Counted from the stretch's first letter, positions 1,707 through 6,219 are shown. The stretch is DNA of 6,219 bases from a virus (IMGVR_UViG_2740892369_000021), one strand, 5' to 3'. Notes: generated by a model not told the origin, from the sequence alone. Numbers and translations are program-made.

Positions 1707-2258
1707 TCAGGCTGAAATGCCTTTATCAAATCCGGGTAACGCAATCTGCCCCTGCTGCTCCAGCCTGTCCAGCCTTGCCAGCAACTGAGGCTTCTTCACC
1801 CTGCCCCAGCGATTGAGCAAACGACCTGACATACTGGCGACATCTTTCTCTTTCATGTACTCCAGCATTACAGCGTTGCGCTCCGCCTCCAGATTCGCCA
1901 GACCTTGCTGAATAAGCTCAGCCATCCAGTTGAAAGCCTGAATGTACGCTTCCTTAAAGGTCATAGCAGCTTTCCCCGTAAAACCAAATACCAACATCGT
2001 CCAACCGTCTTTTGTCATTCGATATATGGGCTGGGGTTTACCGTTCTGTAACTCATTGTTTTCATAGCAAAGCGCAAAATTGCGCTCTGCAAATTCTTTT
2101 GAGCATTGTTGAACAACGGCTCTTGTTTTCCGCAATACATCTTTGTGTTCTTTGCCAAATGCTACGGCAACCTTTCGGGTATCCGTCACCGGCTCGTTGC
2201 CTGTCACAAAAACAAGATCGCGGAAATCAATACCGTTAACAATCGTCGGATAGTTCAT
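1707..2258 (-). CDS. Rha-family phage regulatory protein
   Basis: N-terminal block VTDTRKVAVAFGKEHKDVLRK and KPQPIYRMTKDGWTMLVFGFTGKAAMTFKEAYIQAFNWM fit the Phage_pRha signature (T.SR.VA..FGK.H.nVLR ... mt.dGf..Lvmgf.g..a..fkeayi..Fn.m). SD-like AAAGG 9 nt before ATG 2258. Confidence 0.75.
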   Translation of the reverse strand: MNYPTIVNGIDFRDLVFVTGNEPVTDTRKVAVAFGKEHKDVLRKTRAVVQQCSKEFAERNFALCYENNELQNGKPQPIYRMTKDGWTMLVFGFTGKAAMTFKEAYIQAFNWMAELIQQGLANLEAERNAVMLEYMKEKDVASMSGRLLNRWGRVKKPQLLARLDRLEQQGQIALPGFDKGISA

Positions 2259-2267
2259 AGCGTCTTA

Positions 2268-2359
2268 CCTTTCAGAAAATTGAGCCTGTCTCACAGAAAA
2301 GCCGCCCCGAGATGGTCGCCACCATATACGACAGTTCTCAGGCTCAACTTTCTGAAAGG
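2268..2359. promoter_or_regulatory. Long inverted repeat: 21-bp arms (2268-2288 and 2339-2359, 20/21 complementary) around a 50-bp spacer; 3' arm of the minus-strand RNA contains the Rha gene Shine-Dalgarno
   Basis: Arm 1 CCTTTCAGAAAATTGAGCCTG; reverse complement of arm 2 is CCTTTCAGAAAGTTGAGCCTG. On the minus transcript the stem ends 9 nt before the Rha ATG and includes GAAAGG. Confidence 0.6.
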
Positions 2360-2369
2360 CTCGGGGATG

Positions 2370-2391
2370 TGATATGCGCGTGAGATGCGCG
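2370..2391. repeat. Tandem 11-bp direct repeat x2 (TGATATGCGCG / TGAGATGCGCG)
   Basis: Read directly; sits between the Rz terminator and the Rha-gene inverted repeat. Confidence 0.6.
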
Positions 2392-2407
2392 ATGAAATTC
2401 AGATATG

Positions 2408-2430
2408 AAAAAGCCAGCGATTAAGCTGGC
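2408..2430 (-). terminator. Intrinsic terminator 4 nt after Rz stop
   Basis: Minus strand: GCCAGC-ttaatc-GCTGGC (perfect 6-bp stem) followed by TTTTTCAT. Confidence 0.55.
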
Positions 2431-2434
2431 TCTG

Positions 2435-2893
2435 TTAATTCAGGCACTGAGTGCGGATATATTCCTGCGCCCCTTCCAGTTGCTTCTGCATTGTCATCAA
2501 CCGCTCTCTGAGGGTGAAATAATCCCGTTCAGCGGTGTCTGCCAGTCGGGGGCCGGTTGCATTATCCATTCCGGAGGTGCCGGTGGCTTCACGCACGGTA
2601 CCGGAGCAGGTGGCGTTGATCCGCAGGCGCTTACGACCAGCGGCAACATCAGCACGCAGAGTTTCATTTTCAGCTCTCGCATCGGCTAATTCCCTTGAGT
2701 ATCTGGCATCAAGCGCAGCAACATCACGCTGGCGCTGCTGCATGTCAGTAATGGTTGCGTTTGCCAGCTCCAGCTCTCTGGCTTTTTTATCGCGCTGCGC
2801 TTTGTAGGTGATGGCGTTATCACGGTAATGGTCTGTTGCCAGCCACAGCGCACTACAGACCACCAGCAGAATAACGGTAAACGCGGAAAGCAT
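2435..2893 (-). CDS. Rz: Rz i-spanin (inner-membrane spanin subunit), 152 aa
   Basis: MLSAFTVILLVVCSALWLATDHYRDNAITYKAQRDKKARELELANATITDMQQRQRDVAALDARYSRELADA...DTAERDYFTLRERLMTMQKQLEGAQEYIRTQCLN closely parallels lambda Rz (AVNHYRDNAITYKAQRD..., PRLADTAERDYFTLRERLITMQKQLEG). Start placed at ATG 2893, not the ORF-track start at 3001. Confidence 0.9.
   Translation of the reverse strand: MLSAFTVILLVVCSALWLATDHYRDNAITYKAQRDKKARELELANATITDMQQRQRDVAALDARYSRELADARAENETLRADVAAGRKRLRINATCSGTVREATGTSGMDNATGPRLADTAERDYFTLRERLMTMQKQLEGAQEYIRTQCLN
2497..2682 (-). CDS. Rz1: Rz1 o-spanin (outer-membrane lipoprotein), embedded in Rz in another frame
   Basis: MRELKMKLCVLMLPLVVSACGSTPPAPVPCVKPPAPPEWIMQPAPDWQTPLNGIISPSESG parallels lambda Rz1 (lipobox, Pro-rich, ...CVKPPPPPAWIMQPPPDWQTPLNGIISPSERG). 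Confidence 0.85.
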   Translation of the reverse strand: MRELKMKLCVLMLPLVVSACGSTPPAPVPCVKPPAPPEWIMQPAPDWQTPLNGIISPSESG

Positions 2894-2904
2894 TCGGTTT
2901 ATGC

Positions 2905-3130: not shown

Positions 3131-3826
3131 TCATGCTGCGGTAGCTCTCCATGCAGCAAGCAGACCAGCAATCCACTGAACACCTTTTGGGGTGAATTTA
3201 ACCTGCGTAAAAGCATGACCATTGCCCGCCTCGCCCGTTTTCACGCTAAACCGCCCCGCATCCAGGTGATGCGAGTAAGGCGTCATTTTTCCAGCGAGGC
3301 GATACATTATTCCGTTCTCCAACAAAAACAGCCGGAAATCGGTTTCTTTGATACCGAGTAACTTAGCAACTTCCCGGAATCCCATCAGACCAGATGCTTC
3401 AACATAGTTATCAACAAATTCAGCCTTCGGCGCTGCTATTGCCAGTTGATTTTCCAGCACTGCTTTCTGTTCAGCCAGTTTTGCCGCAAATCGCAACGCC
3501 TCAGGTAAAGTCCGGGGGATCTGAATACCATGCATCGCTTTGAGTCTTGCCAGCACAGAACGACGAACGGCCTTTGACTCCCTCATGCCAACGAGCATCA
3601 TCTGGTCAAAATCCAGATCATAGTATGCCGTTCTTGTCTGGTTATTGTTTAACCGGAATTTTTTTCCGGTTCCATCAAGCTCTAGCTCATCCTCAATTTT
3701 TGCAAGAAACTTACGCGGTTCATGAGGGACTTCTCCGGCTTCTGCCCGGGCTGGATTAATAATGTTATTCAGAAAATCCAGACTACTCATGGATATTTCA
3801 TGATCGACAGAAATCATCTCTTTCAT
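3131..3826 (-). CDS. Phage antirepressor, KilA-C/ANT-domain protein, inserted between R and Rz
   Basis: C-terminal block FREVAKLLGIKETDFRLFLLENGIMYRLAGKMTPYSHHLDAGRFSVKTGEAGNGHAFTQVKFTPKGVQWIAGLL fits the ANT/KilA-C antirepressor pattern. SD AAGGA 7 nt before ATG 3826. Confidence 0.7.
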   Translation of the reverse strand: MKEMISVDHEISMSSLDFLNNIINPARAEAGEVPHEPRKFLAKIEDELELDGTGKKFRLNNNQTRTAYYDLDFDQMMLVGMRESKAVRRSVLARLKAMHGIQIPRTLPEALRFAAKLAEQKAVLENQLAIAAPKAEFVDNYVEASGLMGFREVAKLLGIKETDFRLFLLENGIMYRLAGKMTPYSHHLDAGRFSVKTGEAGNGHAFTQVKFTPKGVQWIAGLLAAWRATAA

Positions 3827-3960
3827 GGTTGATTCCTTTTAGTGATGAACCCTGCGCACAGGAATAACCAGCCCAAAGAGGGTTAACCAGACCACTGCCG
3901 GTTATCCACCAGGGCTCATCCTGAAAGGTTCTTTGGTTTATTTACGCTTGTGCGAAGCGC

Positions 3961-3989
3961 AGAAATGACAAAGGCACCATTACGGTGCC
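3961..3989 (-). terminator. Intrinsic terminator between R and the antirepressor gene
   Basis: Minus strand: GGCACC-gtaat-GGTGCC (perfect 6-bp stem, extendable) followed by TTTGTCATTTCT. Confidence 0.5.
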
Positions 3990-4099: not shown

Positions 4100-4633
4100 T
4101 TATCTGTCGATTCCCCAGCACGCCAGCGCGCTCTCCTGGTCACGACGGGATACCTGACCATAACAGTTATTTGAGCGAATACGGCAGTCTCTGCCACCGT
4201 CCTTAATCCACCAGCGAATCGCTTCGCAGGCACCTTTTCGATCTCCTGCATTAATTCGTTTATAAAACGTCGACGGGAAACACTTACCTGGGCCAATGTT
4301 GTAAGGACAGAATGACGCAATACCCGCTTTCTGGGGTTCAGTCAGTGGCACTTTGATGTTTTTCTCCACCCATGCCAGCGCCTTATCACGCTCAATGGCG
4401 TTAACCTGGTCGCATTTCCCCTTCGACAGCTTCATGCCAGGAATAACAGGCTTACCATCCACCCGGGTGGCTCCACGGCAGATGGTCCAGATACCCGCAC
4501 CATCACGGTATGCCGTGGTGTGGTTGCCTTCCTTTTCATCCAGAAACTGGTCGAGGATTTCAGGCGCAGAAGCACCTGCGGCAATCAGCGCCAGAACGGC
4601 AGCCGATAAACCATAGCGGAGTTTCCTGCTCAT
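4100..4633 (-). CDS. R: SAR endolysin (T4-type lysozyme, GH24) with N-terminal signal-anchor-release domain
   Basis: N-terminal weakly hydrophobic Ala/Gly-rich segment YGLSAAVLALIAAGASA; catalytic triad spacing E-x8-D-x5-T in EKEGNHTTAYRDGAGIWT; overall likeness to phage 21 R. Starts 4 nt after the S stop. Confidence 0.9.
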   Translation of the reverse strand: MSRKLRYGLSAAVLALIAAGASAPEILDQFLDEKEGNHTTAYRDGAGIWTICRGATRVDGKPVIPGMKLSKGKCDQVNAIERDKALAWVEKNIKVPLTEPQKAGIASFCPYNIGPGKCFPSTFYKRINAGDRKGACEAIRWWIKDGGRDCRIRSNNCYGQVSRRDQESALACWGIDR

Positions 4634-5422: not shown

Positions 5423-5440
5423 AATTTCTTTCCGTTATTG

Positions 5441-5469
5441 TTGACAATAAGAACTGTTTTCATTAAAAA
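5441..5469 (+). promoter_or_regulatory. Candidate sigma70 promoter on the plus strand (-35 TTGACA 5441-5446, 17-bp spacer, -10 TAAAAA 5464-5469)
   Basis: Perfect -35 hexamer at ideal spacing; the -10 is weak and lacks the terminal T. Points away from the 59-aa ORF toward the plus-strand terminator. Confidence 0.3.
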
Positions 5470-5475
5470 ACCAGA

Positions 5476-5556
5476 GTACGAAAGTATCGTTCCTTTATTT
5501 TTTCTCCATAGGTATCACCACCGCCAGCGTCCATTCCTGTCGCTGGCGGTTTTTTT
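5476..5556 (+). ncRNA. Candidate small RNA of about 80 nt defined by the promoter and terminator pair; antisense to the region upstream of the 59-aa ORF
   Basis: No plus-strand ORF with a start codon lies between promoter and terminator. The terminator is orphan, on the strand opposite to every surrounding gene. Confidence 0.3.
5520..5556 (+). terminator. Strong intrinsic terminator on the plus strand
   Basis: ACCGCCAGCG-tccattcctgt-CGCTGGCGGT (perfect 9-10 bp GC-rich stem) followed by TTTTTTT (5550-5556). On the minus strand the same hairpin has no U-run after it. Confidence 0.65.
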
Positions 5557-5557
5557 A

Positions 5558-6219
5558 TCATGCCGCAGTGTCTGTGCTGTTCACTTCCACCACAATGCTG
5601 TCTATCAGTACCGGGTAAGTCGCATTCCTGGTAATGTCTGTCACATGCAGTTTATCCGCCGCAAATGCACTGACCGGTGACTGCGTCAGCGTGAACGGTG
5701 TGCCATCCTGACCATCAATAACCGGCGTCACCTGAAGGCTGTTATTCCCGGCAAAGCGGAAAGACAGCGTATGCCATTCGTTATCAAATGCGCCAAAGGT
5801 TCCCAGTTTCAGGTTGTTTGTCGCCACTTTCGCATTGTGGTACATCACATTCAGGTCTTTTGCATCTGTCTGGATGTAGAACGCTGCCAGCAGGTTATTC
5901 CCCCCGTCTCCGGTCAGGGCAACGCCCTGTGGCAGTGAAGATACCGGCCAGTAAAACGCCATAACATACTGGTTCGCAGCCAGCGCTCCCGAAACCTTAA
6001 AGCGGCAGCGAATCTGCCCCCCTTTCTGTAACAGAGCCGCACCGTTGCCCGCGGCGTACTCCAGCACCCAGCTGCTTTTACCGGCTTCCTTGGTCAGCTT
6101 CACTGCCTTACCTCCGGTTCCCTCCGCATCGCTGACCACTTCTGCCCTGCCGCCACTGGCTGACCATCCCTGTACTTTCAGGCTTCCCTCTGACTCGCTG
6201 GCAAGGTAAGAGAGCAGTG
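5558..6219 (-). CDS. C-terminal ~220 aa of a larger protein running off the window end; possible beta-sandwich/lectin-like domain of a cargo protein
   Basis: Minus frame is open from 6219 to the TGA at 5558-5560 (the ORF-track start at 6139 is an internal GTG). Sequence ...WHTLSFRFAGNNSLQVTPVIDGQDGTPFTLTQSPVSAF... Its position upstream of S is where Stx-type phages carry a large nanS-p-like esterase; that identity is a guess from position and composition. Confidence 0.6.
   Translation of the reverse strand, partial: LLSYLASESEGSLKVQGWSASGGRAEVVSDAEGTGGKAVKLTKEAGKSSWVLEYAAGNGAALLQKGGQIRCRFKVSGALAANQYVMAFYWPVSSLPQGVALTGDGGNNLLAAFYIQTDAKDLNVMYHNAKVATNNLKLGTFGAFDNEWHTLSFRFAGNNSLQVTPVIDGQDGTPFTLTQSPVSAFAADKLHVTDITRNATYPVLIDSIVVEVNSTDTAA

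Follow-up and report, generated by a model that had tools for sequence, protein, structure and literature searches.

A 21 bp inverted repeat upstream of a prophage rha gene is one stem of a doubly pseudoknotted mRNA leader, found across Enterobacterales phages, that may gate translation

In IncI-alpha and IncB plasmids (ColIb-P9; Rfam families PK-repZ and PK-repBA), translation of repZ/repA is decided by a hairpin that occludes the ribosome-binding site (RBS) together with long-range pairing of a loop, and the system depends both on an antisense Inc RNA and on a leader peptide being translated. The RNase III processing hairpins of the lambda N-leader and of T7 lack pseudoknots; they overlap the RBS, so that processing can alter translation. 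Among RNAs that silence antirepressor-type genes by pairing at or near the RBS, c4 of P1/P7 uses two short complementary boxes, and IsrK of Gifsy-1 is a leader-derived RNA lying just upstream of an open reading frame (ORF). The locus described here is an inverted repeat directly upstream of a rha gene in a viral stretch of 6,219 nt (IMGVR_UViG_2740892369_000021; the whole stretch is called the window, and positions are counted from its first letter). This repeat is one stem (P1-J-P2) of a conserved mRNA leader of about 150 nt with two pseudoknots (PK1 and PK2), located at window positions 2256–2432 on the minus strand.

A repeat search recovered the two arms much as an earlier note, made from the sequence alone, had described them: 2268–2288 (CCTTTCAGAAAATTGAGCCTG) and 2339–2359 (CAGGCTCAACTTTCTGAAAGG), each of 21 nt, complementary at 20 of 21 positions (95%) and separated by a 50 nt spacer that is itself structured (P3 and P4). 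The sole DNA mismatch becomes a G-U wobble on minus-strand RNA, where the helix is 21/21. No 21 nt inverted repeat (at most one mismatch, spacer of 3–100 nt) was present in any of 300 dinucleotide-preserving shuffles of the window. The 3′ arm terminates in the mRNA in CUGAAAGG, and, as had been proposed, it contains the Shine–Dalgarno (SD) sequence of Rha (GAAAGG, 2268–2273), placed 9 nt (UAAGACGCU) before the AUG at 2256–2258. Folding of the minus-strand 5′ untranslated region (2240–2440), which had been suggested as a check, gave −73.3 kcal/mol (z = −5.2 against shuffles). In nested-only folding, the predicted probability of an unpaired SD was close to 0 for both leader copies of the window. 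In the window copy the SD is paired on the mRNA strand to an upstream anti-SD, as in SD-sequestering leaders. The view that the stem is not a terminator also held, there being no T-run (U-run) 3′ of 2268 on the minus strand and no terminator reported there by the scan.

The stem of this copy (copy 1) is uniquely strong. Its P1 and J helices together amount to −15.7 kcal/mol, compared with −2 to −9 kcal/mol in typical members of the family, and full pairing through J is confined to it. A C.A mismatch in P1 is carried by 76/76 b-type and 42/43 a-type sequences (types are defined below), the remaining a-type sequence having C-G at the same position; in Pantoea stewartii the C.A mismatch is repaired but a neighbouring A.A mismatch has been gained. 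P1 is thus kept imperfect in most members, which fits a helix that is meant to be opened, and the best reading of copy 1 is that it is locked unusually tightly by its perfect 21 bp helix.

The members of the family follow a common plan (coordinates for the window are given in Table 1). The 5′ part runs from a terminator (usually present) through P0 (GCGC-N6-8-GCGC), a linker, the PK1 5′ strand, the P1 5′ strand (anti-SD), J5 and the P2 5′ strand (UGAGCC...) to the P3 5′ strand. The 3′ part consists of P4 (a and d types), the PK1 3′ strand, the P3 3′ strand, a bulge of 5–7 nt (PK2 3′ strand), the P2 3′ strand, J3 and the P1 3′ strand with the SD, followed after 6–9 nt by AUG; the SD and AUG form the 3′ end of the element in all cases. 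A terminator lies directly upstream in most members, and the alignments show the terminator, then TTTTTTAT, then P0. The PK1 5′ strand abuts the anti-SD without a linker, and its partner is about 28 bp away at the hairpin tip. The strand was assigned from the SD/AUG linkage, from single-sided changes that give only G-U, and from the reads of a P22 RNA described below. Duplex energies are uninformative in this respect, given the nearest-neighbour asymmetry and the conserved C.A of P1, which would be G-U on the other strand.

Six sequence types (a–f) were distinguished from IMG/VR pattern scans and nhmmer searches. The a-type includes window copy 1, phi80 and epsilon34; the b-type is shorter and lacks P4; a second leader copy in the window is of c-type; the d-type comprises P22 and many others; and e and f are rarer. 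Judged from these sequences, every helix keeps its pairing through compensatory changes across the six types. Among 76 distinct b-type sequences, standard pairs fill 93.1% of the pair cells of the alignment, compared with 25–44% when partners were slid. Both sides are changed in 10 pairs, including five of the six in PK1, compared with 4.1 in shuffles (0/500). Corresponding values for the d-type alignment (55 sequences) are 93.5% against 33–43%, with 18 doubly changed pairs against 10.5 in shuffles and 114 cells against 29 (0/500). The d-type changes on both sides fall in P0 (3/4 pairs), PK2 (3/5), PK1 (3/6, e.g., AU in 30 sequences with GC in 24), P1 (4 pairs) and P3 (4 pairs). Stem variants of P0 among relatives include GUGC:GCAC, GCGU:ACGC and GCAC:GUGC, and RNAalifold, run unguided on d-type sequences, predicted P0, P1 and P2, with compensatory changes in four of the six P1 pairs. 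Covariation of the arms in relatives, the comparison that the earlier note had proposed, did not refute its reading: the arms scarcely vary in the a and b types, and in the d and e types they are changed on both sides with pairing kept.

Column counts on the MAFFT alignment of a-type sequences under-report PK1 and PK2 owing to register shifts, and were superseded by the d-type alignment and by partner-swap tests, in which each 5′ strand was paired with the 3′ strands of other haplotypes because the subtypes are register-shifted. Strands paired with their own partners reached −7.4 kcal/mol against −5.7 for PK1, and −5.8 against −3.5 for PK2, and the observed mean was attained in 0/2000 permutations in either case. 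Among 16 type representatives there are 15 distinct strand pairs for PK2, 10 for PK1, 6 for P1 and 7 for P2, nearly all of them fully complementary. Examples for PK2 are UCUCAC:GUGAGA, UCGCAC:GUGCGA, CCCAC:GUGGG, UUCACC:GGUGAA, CUGACAU:AUGUCAG and CGCUC:GAGCG; for PK1, CCCCGAG:CUCGGGG, CGAGAG:CUCUCG, GAAAGU:ACUUUC, CGAUA:UAUCG, CGUCGA:UCGACG and CCACAGAG:CUCUGUGG; and for P1 of the e-type, CACAUAG:CUAUGUG and UAUAGAAAU:AUUUCUAUA. Recombinant leaders, with PK1 of one type and PK2 of another, still have both partner sets matched. A covariance model built from b-type sequences only matches copy 1 (2257–2400, 52 bits, E = 5.6e-11), copy 2 of the window (3830–3973, minus strand, 33.8 bits, E = 7.9e-7) and the P22 copy.

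The complementary segments are interleaved (x, y, P1a, P2a, P3a, y′, P3b, x′, P2b, P1b), so these pairings cannot be a DNA cruciform or a simple palindromic (dyad) operator. This bears on the idea that the inverted repeat and the 11 bp direct repeats upstream of it act at the DNA level, as operators, sites for the protein IHF, or the rha promoter, an explanation that we consider very improbable. The earlier note had proposed the direct repeat as an operator. It exists (GTGATATGCGC/GTGAGATGCGC at 2369–2390, matching at 10/11 positions and lying one base away from the register first given), but the operator reading was rejected, as the repeat is the P0 hairpin plus linker, unit 1 being the P0 5′ strand and loop, and unit 2 the P0 3′ stem and linker. 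The P0 loop covaries with the bulge 90 nt downstream (PK2) and not with unit 2. Outside the GCGC stem, loop and linker have a median identity of about 0.33–0.44 in 169 distinct relatives, where the units are not conserved as repeats and among which the window (6/7) is an outlier. Also at odds with a DNA-level role, the distance between the P2 arms ranges over 45–61 nt with P3 covarying, and single-sided changes are transitions that leave a G-U pair on the sense strand. Some a-type members show weak TTCACA-N16-TATTAA-like hexamers, but these are not kept across types, and a scan of 1600–2700 for sigma-70 promoters (−35 and −10 hexamers spaced by 16–18 nt) found none on either strand, the sole terminator-like site there being the Rz-distal hairpin. 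In favour of a DNA-level role, Henthorn and Friedman (1995) are said to have found rha expression in phi80 and P22 to be limited by IHF, with IHF-consensus sites around the start. A further source confirms only that IHF “regulates the rha gene” (PMC4936722). Inspection by eye for the IHF consensus revealed a single weak WATCAR-N4-TTR-like site, within the start of the phi80 rha coding sequence.

A survey of P22 small RNAs (2026) reported an abundant sense-strand RNA of 89 nt, P22F (AF217253, 21301–21389), as a cluster of reads folded into a hairpin by Mfold, with “no known function”, at 926 reads per million in the cytosol and 2054 in vesicles (PMC13397905). P22F corresponds to P2 through the SD of the P22 d-type leader (P2-P3-P4-P2′-P1′/SD); its 5′ end is at the P1/P2 junction and its 3′ end between SD and AUG, 6 nt before the rha AUG. 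These reads indicate that the leader RNA is made on the sense strand. The report of P22F covers neither the family, P0 and the two pseudoknots, nor the relationship to the SD and the distribution over gene cassettes, and it is the only prior trace of the leader family that was found. In P22 the leader occupies AF217253 21246–21396, and ORF201/rha is annotated from an upstream GTG (21326) inside it, whereas the SD-proximal ATG is at 21396. Because this GTG lies within the leader and P22F ends at 21389, ahead of the ATG at 21396, the annotated N-terminal extension is probably not translated.

The defined ends of P22F could also mean that the element is a processing signal, a source of a stable small RNA, or both: the long helix would be cut by RNase III (or by RNase E in the flanks), uncoupling the cassette from the late polycistronic mRNA or severing the SD from the AUG, and a released core resembling P22F might act in trans by analogy with IsrK. 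The position of the element at cistron boundaries of a long operon speaks for this, as do the at least 21 contiguous bp (plus P3) of copy 1, which provide the roughly two turns of double-stranded RNA of an RNase III site. However, the ends of P22F are not the 2 nt staggered cut across one helix that RNase III would give, read pile-ups over stable hairpins are commonly decay intermediates, no target complementarity is known, the P1/J helices are short and mismatched or interrupted in most members, and a mere cleavage site leaves the covariation of the pseudoknots unexplained. Processing is compatible with translational control, but as the main explanation we regard it as rather unlikely.

Matches were found well beyond P22. 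A blastn search for distant relatives with the intergenic region alone returned 151 phage records, in which conservation (78–87%) is confined to about 160 nt between the terminator and the start codon. This block is found in P22-like phages, phi80, HK106, HK639, epsilon34, and phages of Klebsiella, Hafnia and Pantoea, before differing genes: the flanking gene encodes Rha in phi80, HK639, Sf101 and Klebsiella phages, KilA-N in SPN3UB, and a GIY-YIG/T5orf172 protein in epsilon34 and HK106. Across the family, the downstream genes encode Rha, KilA-N, Ant-like, GIY-YIG, HNH and tail-tip (J C-terminal-like) domain proteins and several families of unknown function. Three pattern scans of viral contigs (IMG/VR) gave at least 120 matches each, and in Enterobacterales the family is present at hundreds of loci in phages and prophages. 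When one genome per species was scanned, 49 matches were obtained, of which about 42 are real; the real ones all belong to Enterobacterales and include Escherichia, Citrobacter, Enterobacter, Pantoea, Yersinia, Serratia, Rahnella, Buttiauxella, Brenneria, Tatumella and other genera. Five matches in Pseudomonas that resemble repetitive extragenic palindromes (L277, L279, L284, L285 and L291) were set aside as chance; the palindrome GTAGGAGTGAGCCTGCTCGCGAT... of L277 (Pseudomonas brassicacearum) fits the P2/P1 pattern by chance and is a false-positive trap for pattern searches. Matches from metagenome-assembled genomes labelled Bacillota, Collinsella and Cellvibrionaceae were also set aside, their sequences being near-identical to Enterobacterales matches; in four such genomes (L261, L282, L287 and L292) the leader is identical or nearly so to, for example, that of E. 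coli L281, probably through contamination or mis-binning. Among complete E. coli genomes (n = 5426) the a-type is present in 975 (about 18%) and the b-type in 545, and the RefSeq annotation under these loci holds nothing except flanking coding sequences.

The window itself carries a second, divergent leader of c-type, upstream of the Ant/KilAC gene, whose pseudoknot sequences are unlike those of copy 1. The c-type leader occurs in 291 phage records, mostly of Stx phages. Two copies before consecutive cassettes are seen in several phages (L044/L225, L013, L115, L312, L322 and L250, which is phi80); in phi80 an a-type leader precedes rha and a b-type leader precedes an ORF of 243 aa adjoining terminase. 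The PK2 sequences are common to some of these pairs and orthogonal in others. One b-type copy (L242, 1630–1749) is truncated at the 5′ end, P0 and the PK1 5′ flank being replaced by unrelated sequence, possibly at an insertion or recombination junction. O157-type Stx2a phages (e.g., Stx2_EH1965, LC616032.1) have an exact deletion of 11 nt (CGCGCATCTCA), aligned to window 2380–2390, between the units of the direct repeat. One repeat unit is thereby lost, and with it P0 and the PK2 5′ strand, while the remaining leader is identical, making this a natural allele without PK2.

The presence of the same leader before many unrelated genes means that it is not a Rha-specific device. The earlier proposal of translational control stands insofar as the stem is conserved on the sense strand, has the SD as its 3′ strand and is not a terminator, and needs revision insofar as the stem belongs to a larger pseudoknotted leader of wider use, with occlusion that is predicted to be modest or weak in many relatives. 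The Rha leader is one of a large family of portable, self-contained mRNA leaders that probably set or gate translation of the next accessory gene. Window 2256–2432 (minus strand) encodes the leader at the 5′ end of the Rha cistron in the late transcript of the phage, where it would gate initiation on the downstream cassette and may also insulate that gene from its upstream context. The genes behind the leader are often toxic DNA-binding proteins or nucleases, and would sit in a very strongly transcribed operon. With the uninterrupted 21 bp of P1-J-P2 in copy 1, the SD would essentially never be free, and Rha would be strongly repressed unless the structure were opened or cleaved. PK1 would bind the strand flanking the anti-SD to the distal tip of the hairpin, and this can be pictured in two ways. 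As a switch, PK1 would compete with P1 in a two-state (ON/OFF) arrangement, P1 opening for PK1 and the anti-SD strand becoming the pseudoknot loop. As a lock, P3 and PK1 (16–17 bp) would lie beside P1-J-P2 (19–21 bp) with two linker-free crossovers, giving a two-stack fold that would lock P1, and PK2 would create a three-way junction at the bend. In the simplest rationale, the leader would be a portable device that throttles and insulates toxic accessory genes within a late operon, which agrees with old genetics indicating that unregulated Rha is harmful.

A bolder proposal, which we put forward only tentatively, is that the leaders form a new class of factor- or signal-responsive riboregulator. 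In this double-pseudoknot clamp, docking of the 5′ domain (P0 loop and flank) on P2/P3 would decide whether the anti-SD is free to close on the SD, and the leader would be a plug-in module of temperate phages of Enterobacterales for timing or conditioning the expression of toxic, exclusion and anti-defence cassettes, with Ant and Rha of the Shiga-toxin phages among them.

Several observations weigh against translational gating as the common function. In nested-only folding, occlusion of the SD is modest in the a and b types (unpaired probability 0.18 against 0.31 with shuffled upstream sequence) and absent in the d types (0.31 against 0.32), and such weak occlusion in many relatives suggests that sequestration may not be the function of the whole family. 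In the a and b types P1 and P2 hardly vary, and support for them comes from the rarer c–f types. The P22F pile-up could equally be a processed trans-acting RNA or a decay intermediate. O157-type Stx2a phages persist without P0 and the PK2 5′ strand, so that PK2 is dispensable at least there. A correlation between P1 and PK1 stabilities (Spearman about 0.7), considered as evidence for a switch, was not used, as it largely reflects the difference between the a and b clades. To these is added the scarcity of invariant unpaired nucleotides, which argues against a small-molecule aptamer.

This scarcity bears directly on a ligand-sensing riboswitch, in which the core of P0, PK1, PK2, P2 and P3 would bind a metabolite or signalling nucleotide as an aptamer, with P1 as the expression platform. 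The compact double pseudoknot is a conserved fold with strong covariation, the SD lies in the closing helix, and two alternative states are conceivable, all of which would suit such a device. Invariant leader positions are, however, mostly in P1 and P2, and L, J, the P0–PK1 linker and the P4 loop differ freely from type to type. No metabolic theme unites the downstream genes, and P0/PK2 have been deleted in a successful lineage (the O157-type Stx2a phages). Taken together, a riboswitch appears quite improbable. Least probable of all is a self-cleaving ribozyme, or another catalytic or architectural RNA unrelated to translation: double pseudoknots are typical of small ribozymes, the position in phage genomes is intergenic and the P22 RNA has defined ends, but no Rfam ribozyme model matched at E ≤ 1, unpaired nucleotides resembling an invariant catalytic core are lacking, and the 3′ end is strictly linked to the SD and AUG. 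A leader peptide was also considered and rejected, since the short ORFs opened by AUG or GUG in P4, which end at or near the SD, differ in frame by single-base indels and do not occur in b types. The “hypothetical protein” annotated on the plus strand in SPN3UB is not conserved.

The window is the late (lysis) region of a lambdoid prophage of Stx type, and is identical (100%) to Escherichia phage Lys8385Vzw and several Stx1a phages. Its minus-strand genes encode DUF1378, DUF826, holin, lysozyme, Ant/KilAC, Rz/Rz1, Rha, a TonB_C lipoprotein and an HNH endonuclease. The lysis cassette is interrupted between its lysozyme and Rz genes by the inserted Ant cassette, which consists of terminator, leader and gene. 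Another 11 bp tandem repeat (GATACGGCGAC, about 2.5 units) is found at 1671–1697, just 3′ of the Rha stop and before the TonB_C lipoprotein gene. A terminator-like hairpin lies at 5430–5560, downstream of the pR′/moron site, and a weak Esr41-like Rfam match at 5481–5558 on the plus strand (28 bits, E = 0.03). The convergent anti-sRNAs (anti-small RNAs; AgvB/AsxR family) of Stx-type prophages are placed in this 5430–5560 region by Tree et al. 2014; they map to the pR′ moron site and not to the Rha leader.

Table 1. Leader elements and neighbouring genes of the window.
Feature	Position	Strand	Remarks
Rho-independent terminator, GAGCCAGC-UUAAUC-GCUGGC + UUUUUC	2407–2432	-	GC-rich hairpin with U-run, immediately behind the Rz stop
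P0 hairpin, GCGC-AUCUCAC-GCGC	2376–2390	-	Tandem-repeat unit 1 and start of unit 2; stem covaries
PK2 5′ strand, UCUCAC (P0 loop)	2380–2385	-	Partner GUGAGA, 2289–2294
PK1 5′ strand, CCCCGAG	2360–2366	-	Directly 5′ of anti-SD; partner CUCGGGG, 2305–2311
P1 5′ strand (anti-SD), CCUUUCAG	2352–2359	-	
J5, AAAGU	2347–2351	-	Full pairing with J3 in copy 1 only (one G-U)
P2 5′ strand, UGAGCCUG	2339–2346	-	
P3 5′ strand, AGAACUGUCG	2329–2338	-	
P4 hairpin, AUGGU-GGCG-ACCAU	2312–2325	-	a and d types only; one pair AU:21 vs UA:16
PK1 3′ strand, CUCGGGG	2305–2311	-	3′ part of apical region
P3 3′ strand, CGGCUUUUCU	2295–2304	-	
PK2 3′ strand, GUGAGA	2289–2294	-	6 nt bulge between P3 and P2
P2 3′ strand, CAGGCUCA	2281–2288	-	
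J3, AUUUU	2276–2280	-	
P1 3′ strand, CUGAAAGG	2268–2275	-	Contains SD GAAAGG (2268–2273)
Rha gene	1707–2258	-	Downstream of leader copy 1; start codon AUG 2256–2258; 183 aa ORF; Pfam Phage_pRha + ORF11CD3
Rz/Rz1 genes	2435–2902	-	
Ant/KilAC protein gene	3131–3826	-	
Second leader copy (c-type)	3824–3989	-	Divergent; upstream of Ant/KilAC gene; found by b-type covariance model; AUG 3824–3826
Copy 2 terminator	3963–3989	-	
Copy 2 P0, CGCUU-CGCAC-AAGCG	3945–3959	-	
Copy 2 PK1, CCAAAGA with UCUUUGG	3930–3936 with 3873–3879	-	
Copy 2 P1	3921–3928 with 3835–3842	-	3′ strand contains SD
Copy 2 P2, UGAGCCCUG:CAGGGUUCA	3910–3918 with 3846–3854	-	
Copy 2 P3	3897–3907 with 3861–3872	-	
Copy 2 PK2, CGCAC with GUGCG	3950–3954 with 3855–3859	-	
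Lysozyme gene	4100–4633	-	

If confirmed, the leader would be a widespread and elaborate cis-regulatory RNA that is unannotated in phages which are among the most thoroughly studied, namely P22, phi80, HK620-like, epsilon34-like, mEp and Stx phages. It would explain how cassettes of toxic regulators and nucleases can reside inside a strongly transcribed late operon, and would offer a molecular approach to the long-standing finding that rha has to be expressed at a low level. In Shiga-toxin phages, the two copies precede Ant and Rha, both of which are candidates for prophage cross-talk, and the leader may therefore bear on induction biology. The modular unit of terminator, leader and gene offers a clue to how morons move. 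The covarying pseudoknots and the natural P0-deletion allele of the O157 Stx2a phages make the hypothesis directly testable. A description of the family was not found in the literature searched, the coverage of which is incomplete, so that an earlier mention elsewhere is possible.

Compared with known systems, the element had no match in Rfam 15 (cmscan, E ≤ 1; the window and eight loci comprising a-type, b-type and second copies), including C4, sar, isrK, PK-repZ/repBA, ribozymes and riboswitches. As in SD-sequestering platforms and RNA thermometers (fourU, ROSE), a pyrimidine-rich anti-SD (CCUUUC) pairs with an AAAGG SD just before the start codon, and the helix is AU-rich with a conserved non-canonical pair in most members; unlike them, P1 is the outer stem of a fold of about 130–170 nt with two covarying pseudoknots that is common to unrelated genes. 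With the repZ/repA leaders it shares the combination of an RBS-occluding hairpin and long-range pairing of a hairpin loop to a distant strand, but there is no conserved leader ORF (frames are broken by indels between subtypes), the partners and topology differ, and neither Rfam model matches. We know of no antisense RNA to the phage leader. Like the lambda N-leader and T7 hairpins, it forms a long irregular hairpin that overlaps the RBS and immediately precedes a cistron of a polycistronic phage transcript; the pseudoknots, and P22F ends unlike an RNase III cut, set it apart. As with c4, P22 sar and IsrK, antirepressor-type genes (Rha, Ant, KilA-N) are involved together with RNA pairing at the RBS or close to it. 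The c4, sar and IsrK RNAs work in trans or as antisense, whereas all partners of the leader are in cis on one molecule, and the leader also precedes nuclease and tail-tip-like genes. P22F was likened to Gifsy-1 IsrK (PMC13397905); it is part of P22's own d-type member of the leader family. The closest known systems thus each share one feature with the leader and none shares its architecture, and the leader is apparently an uncatalogued, well-supported family of structured RNA.

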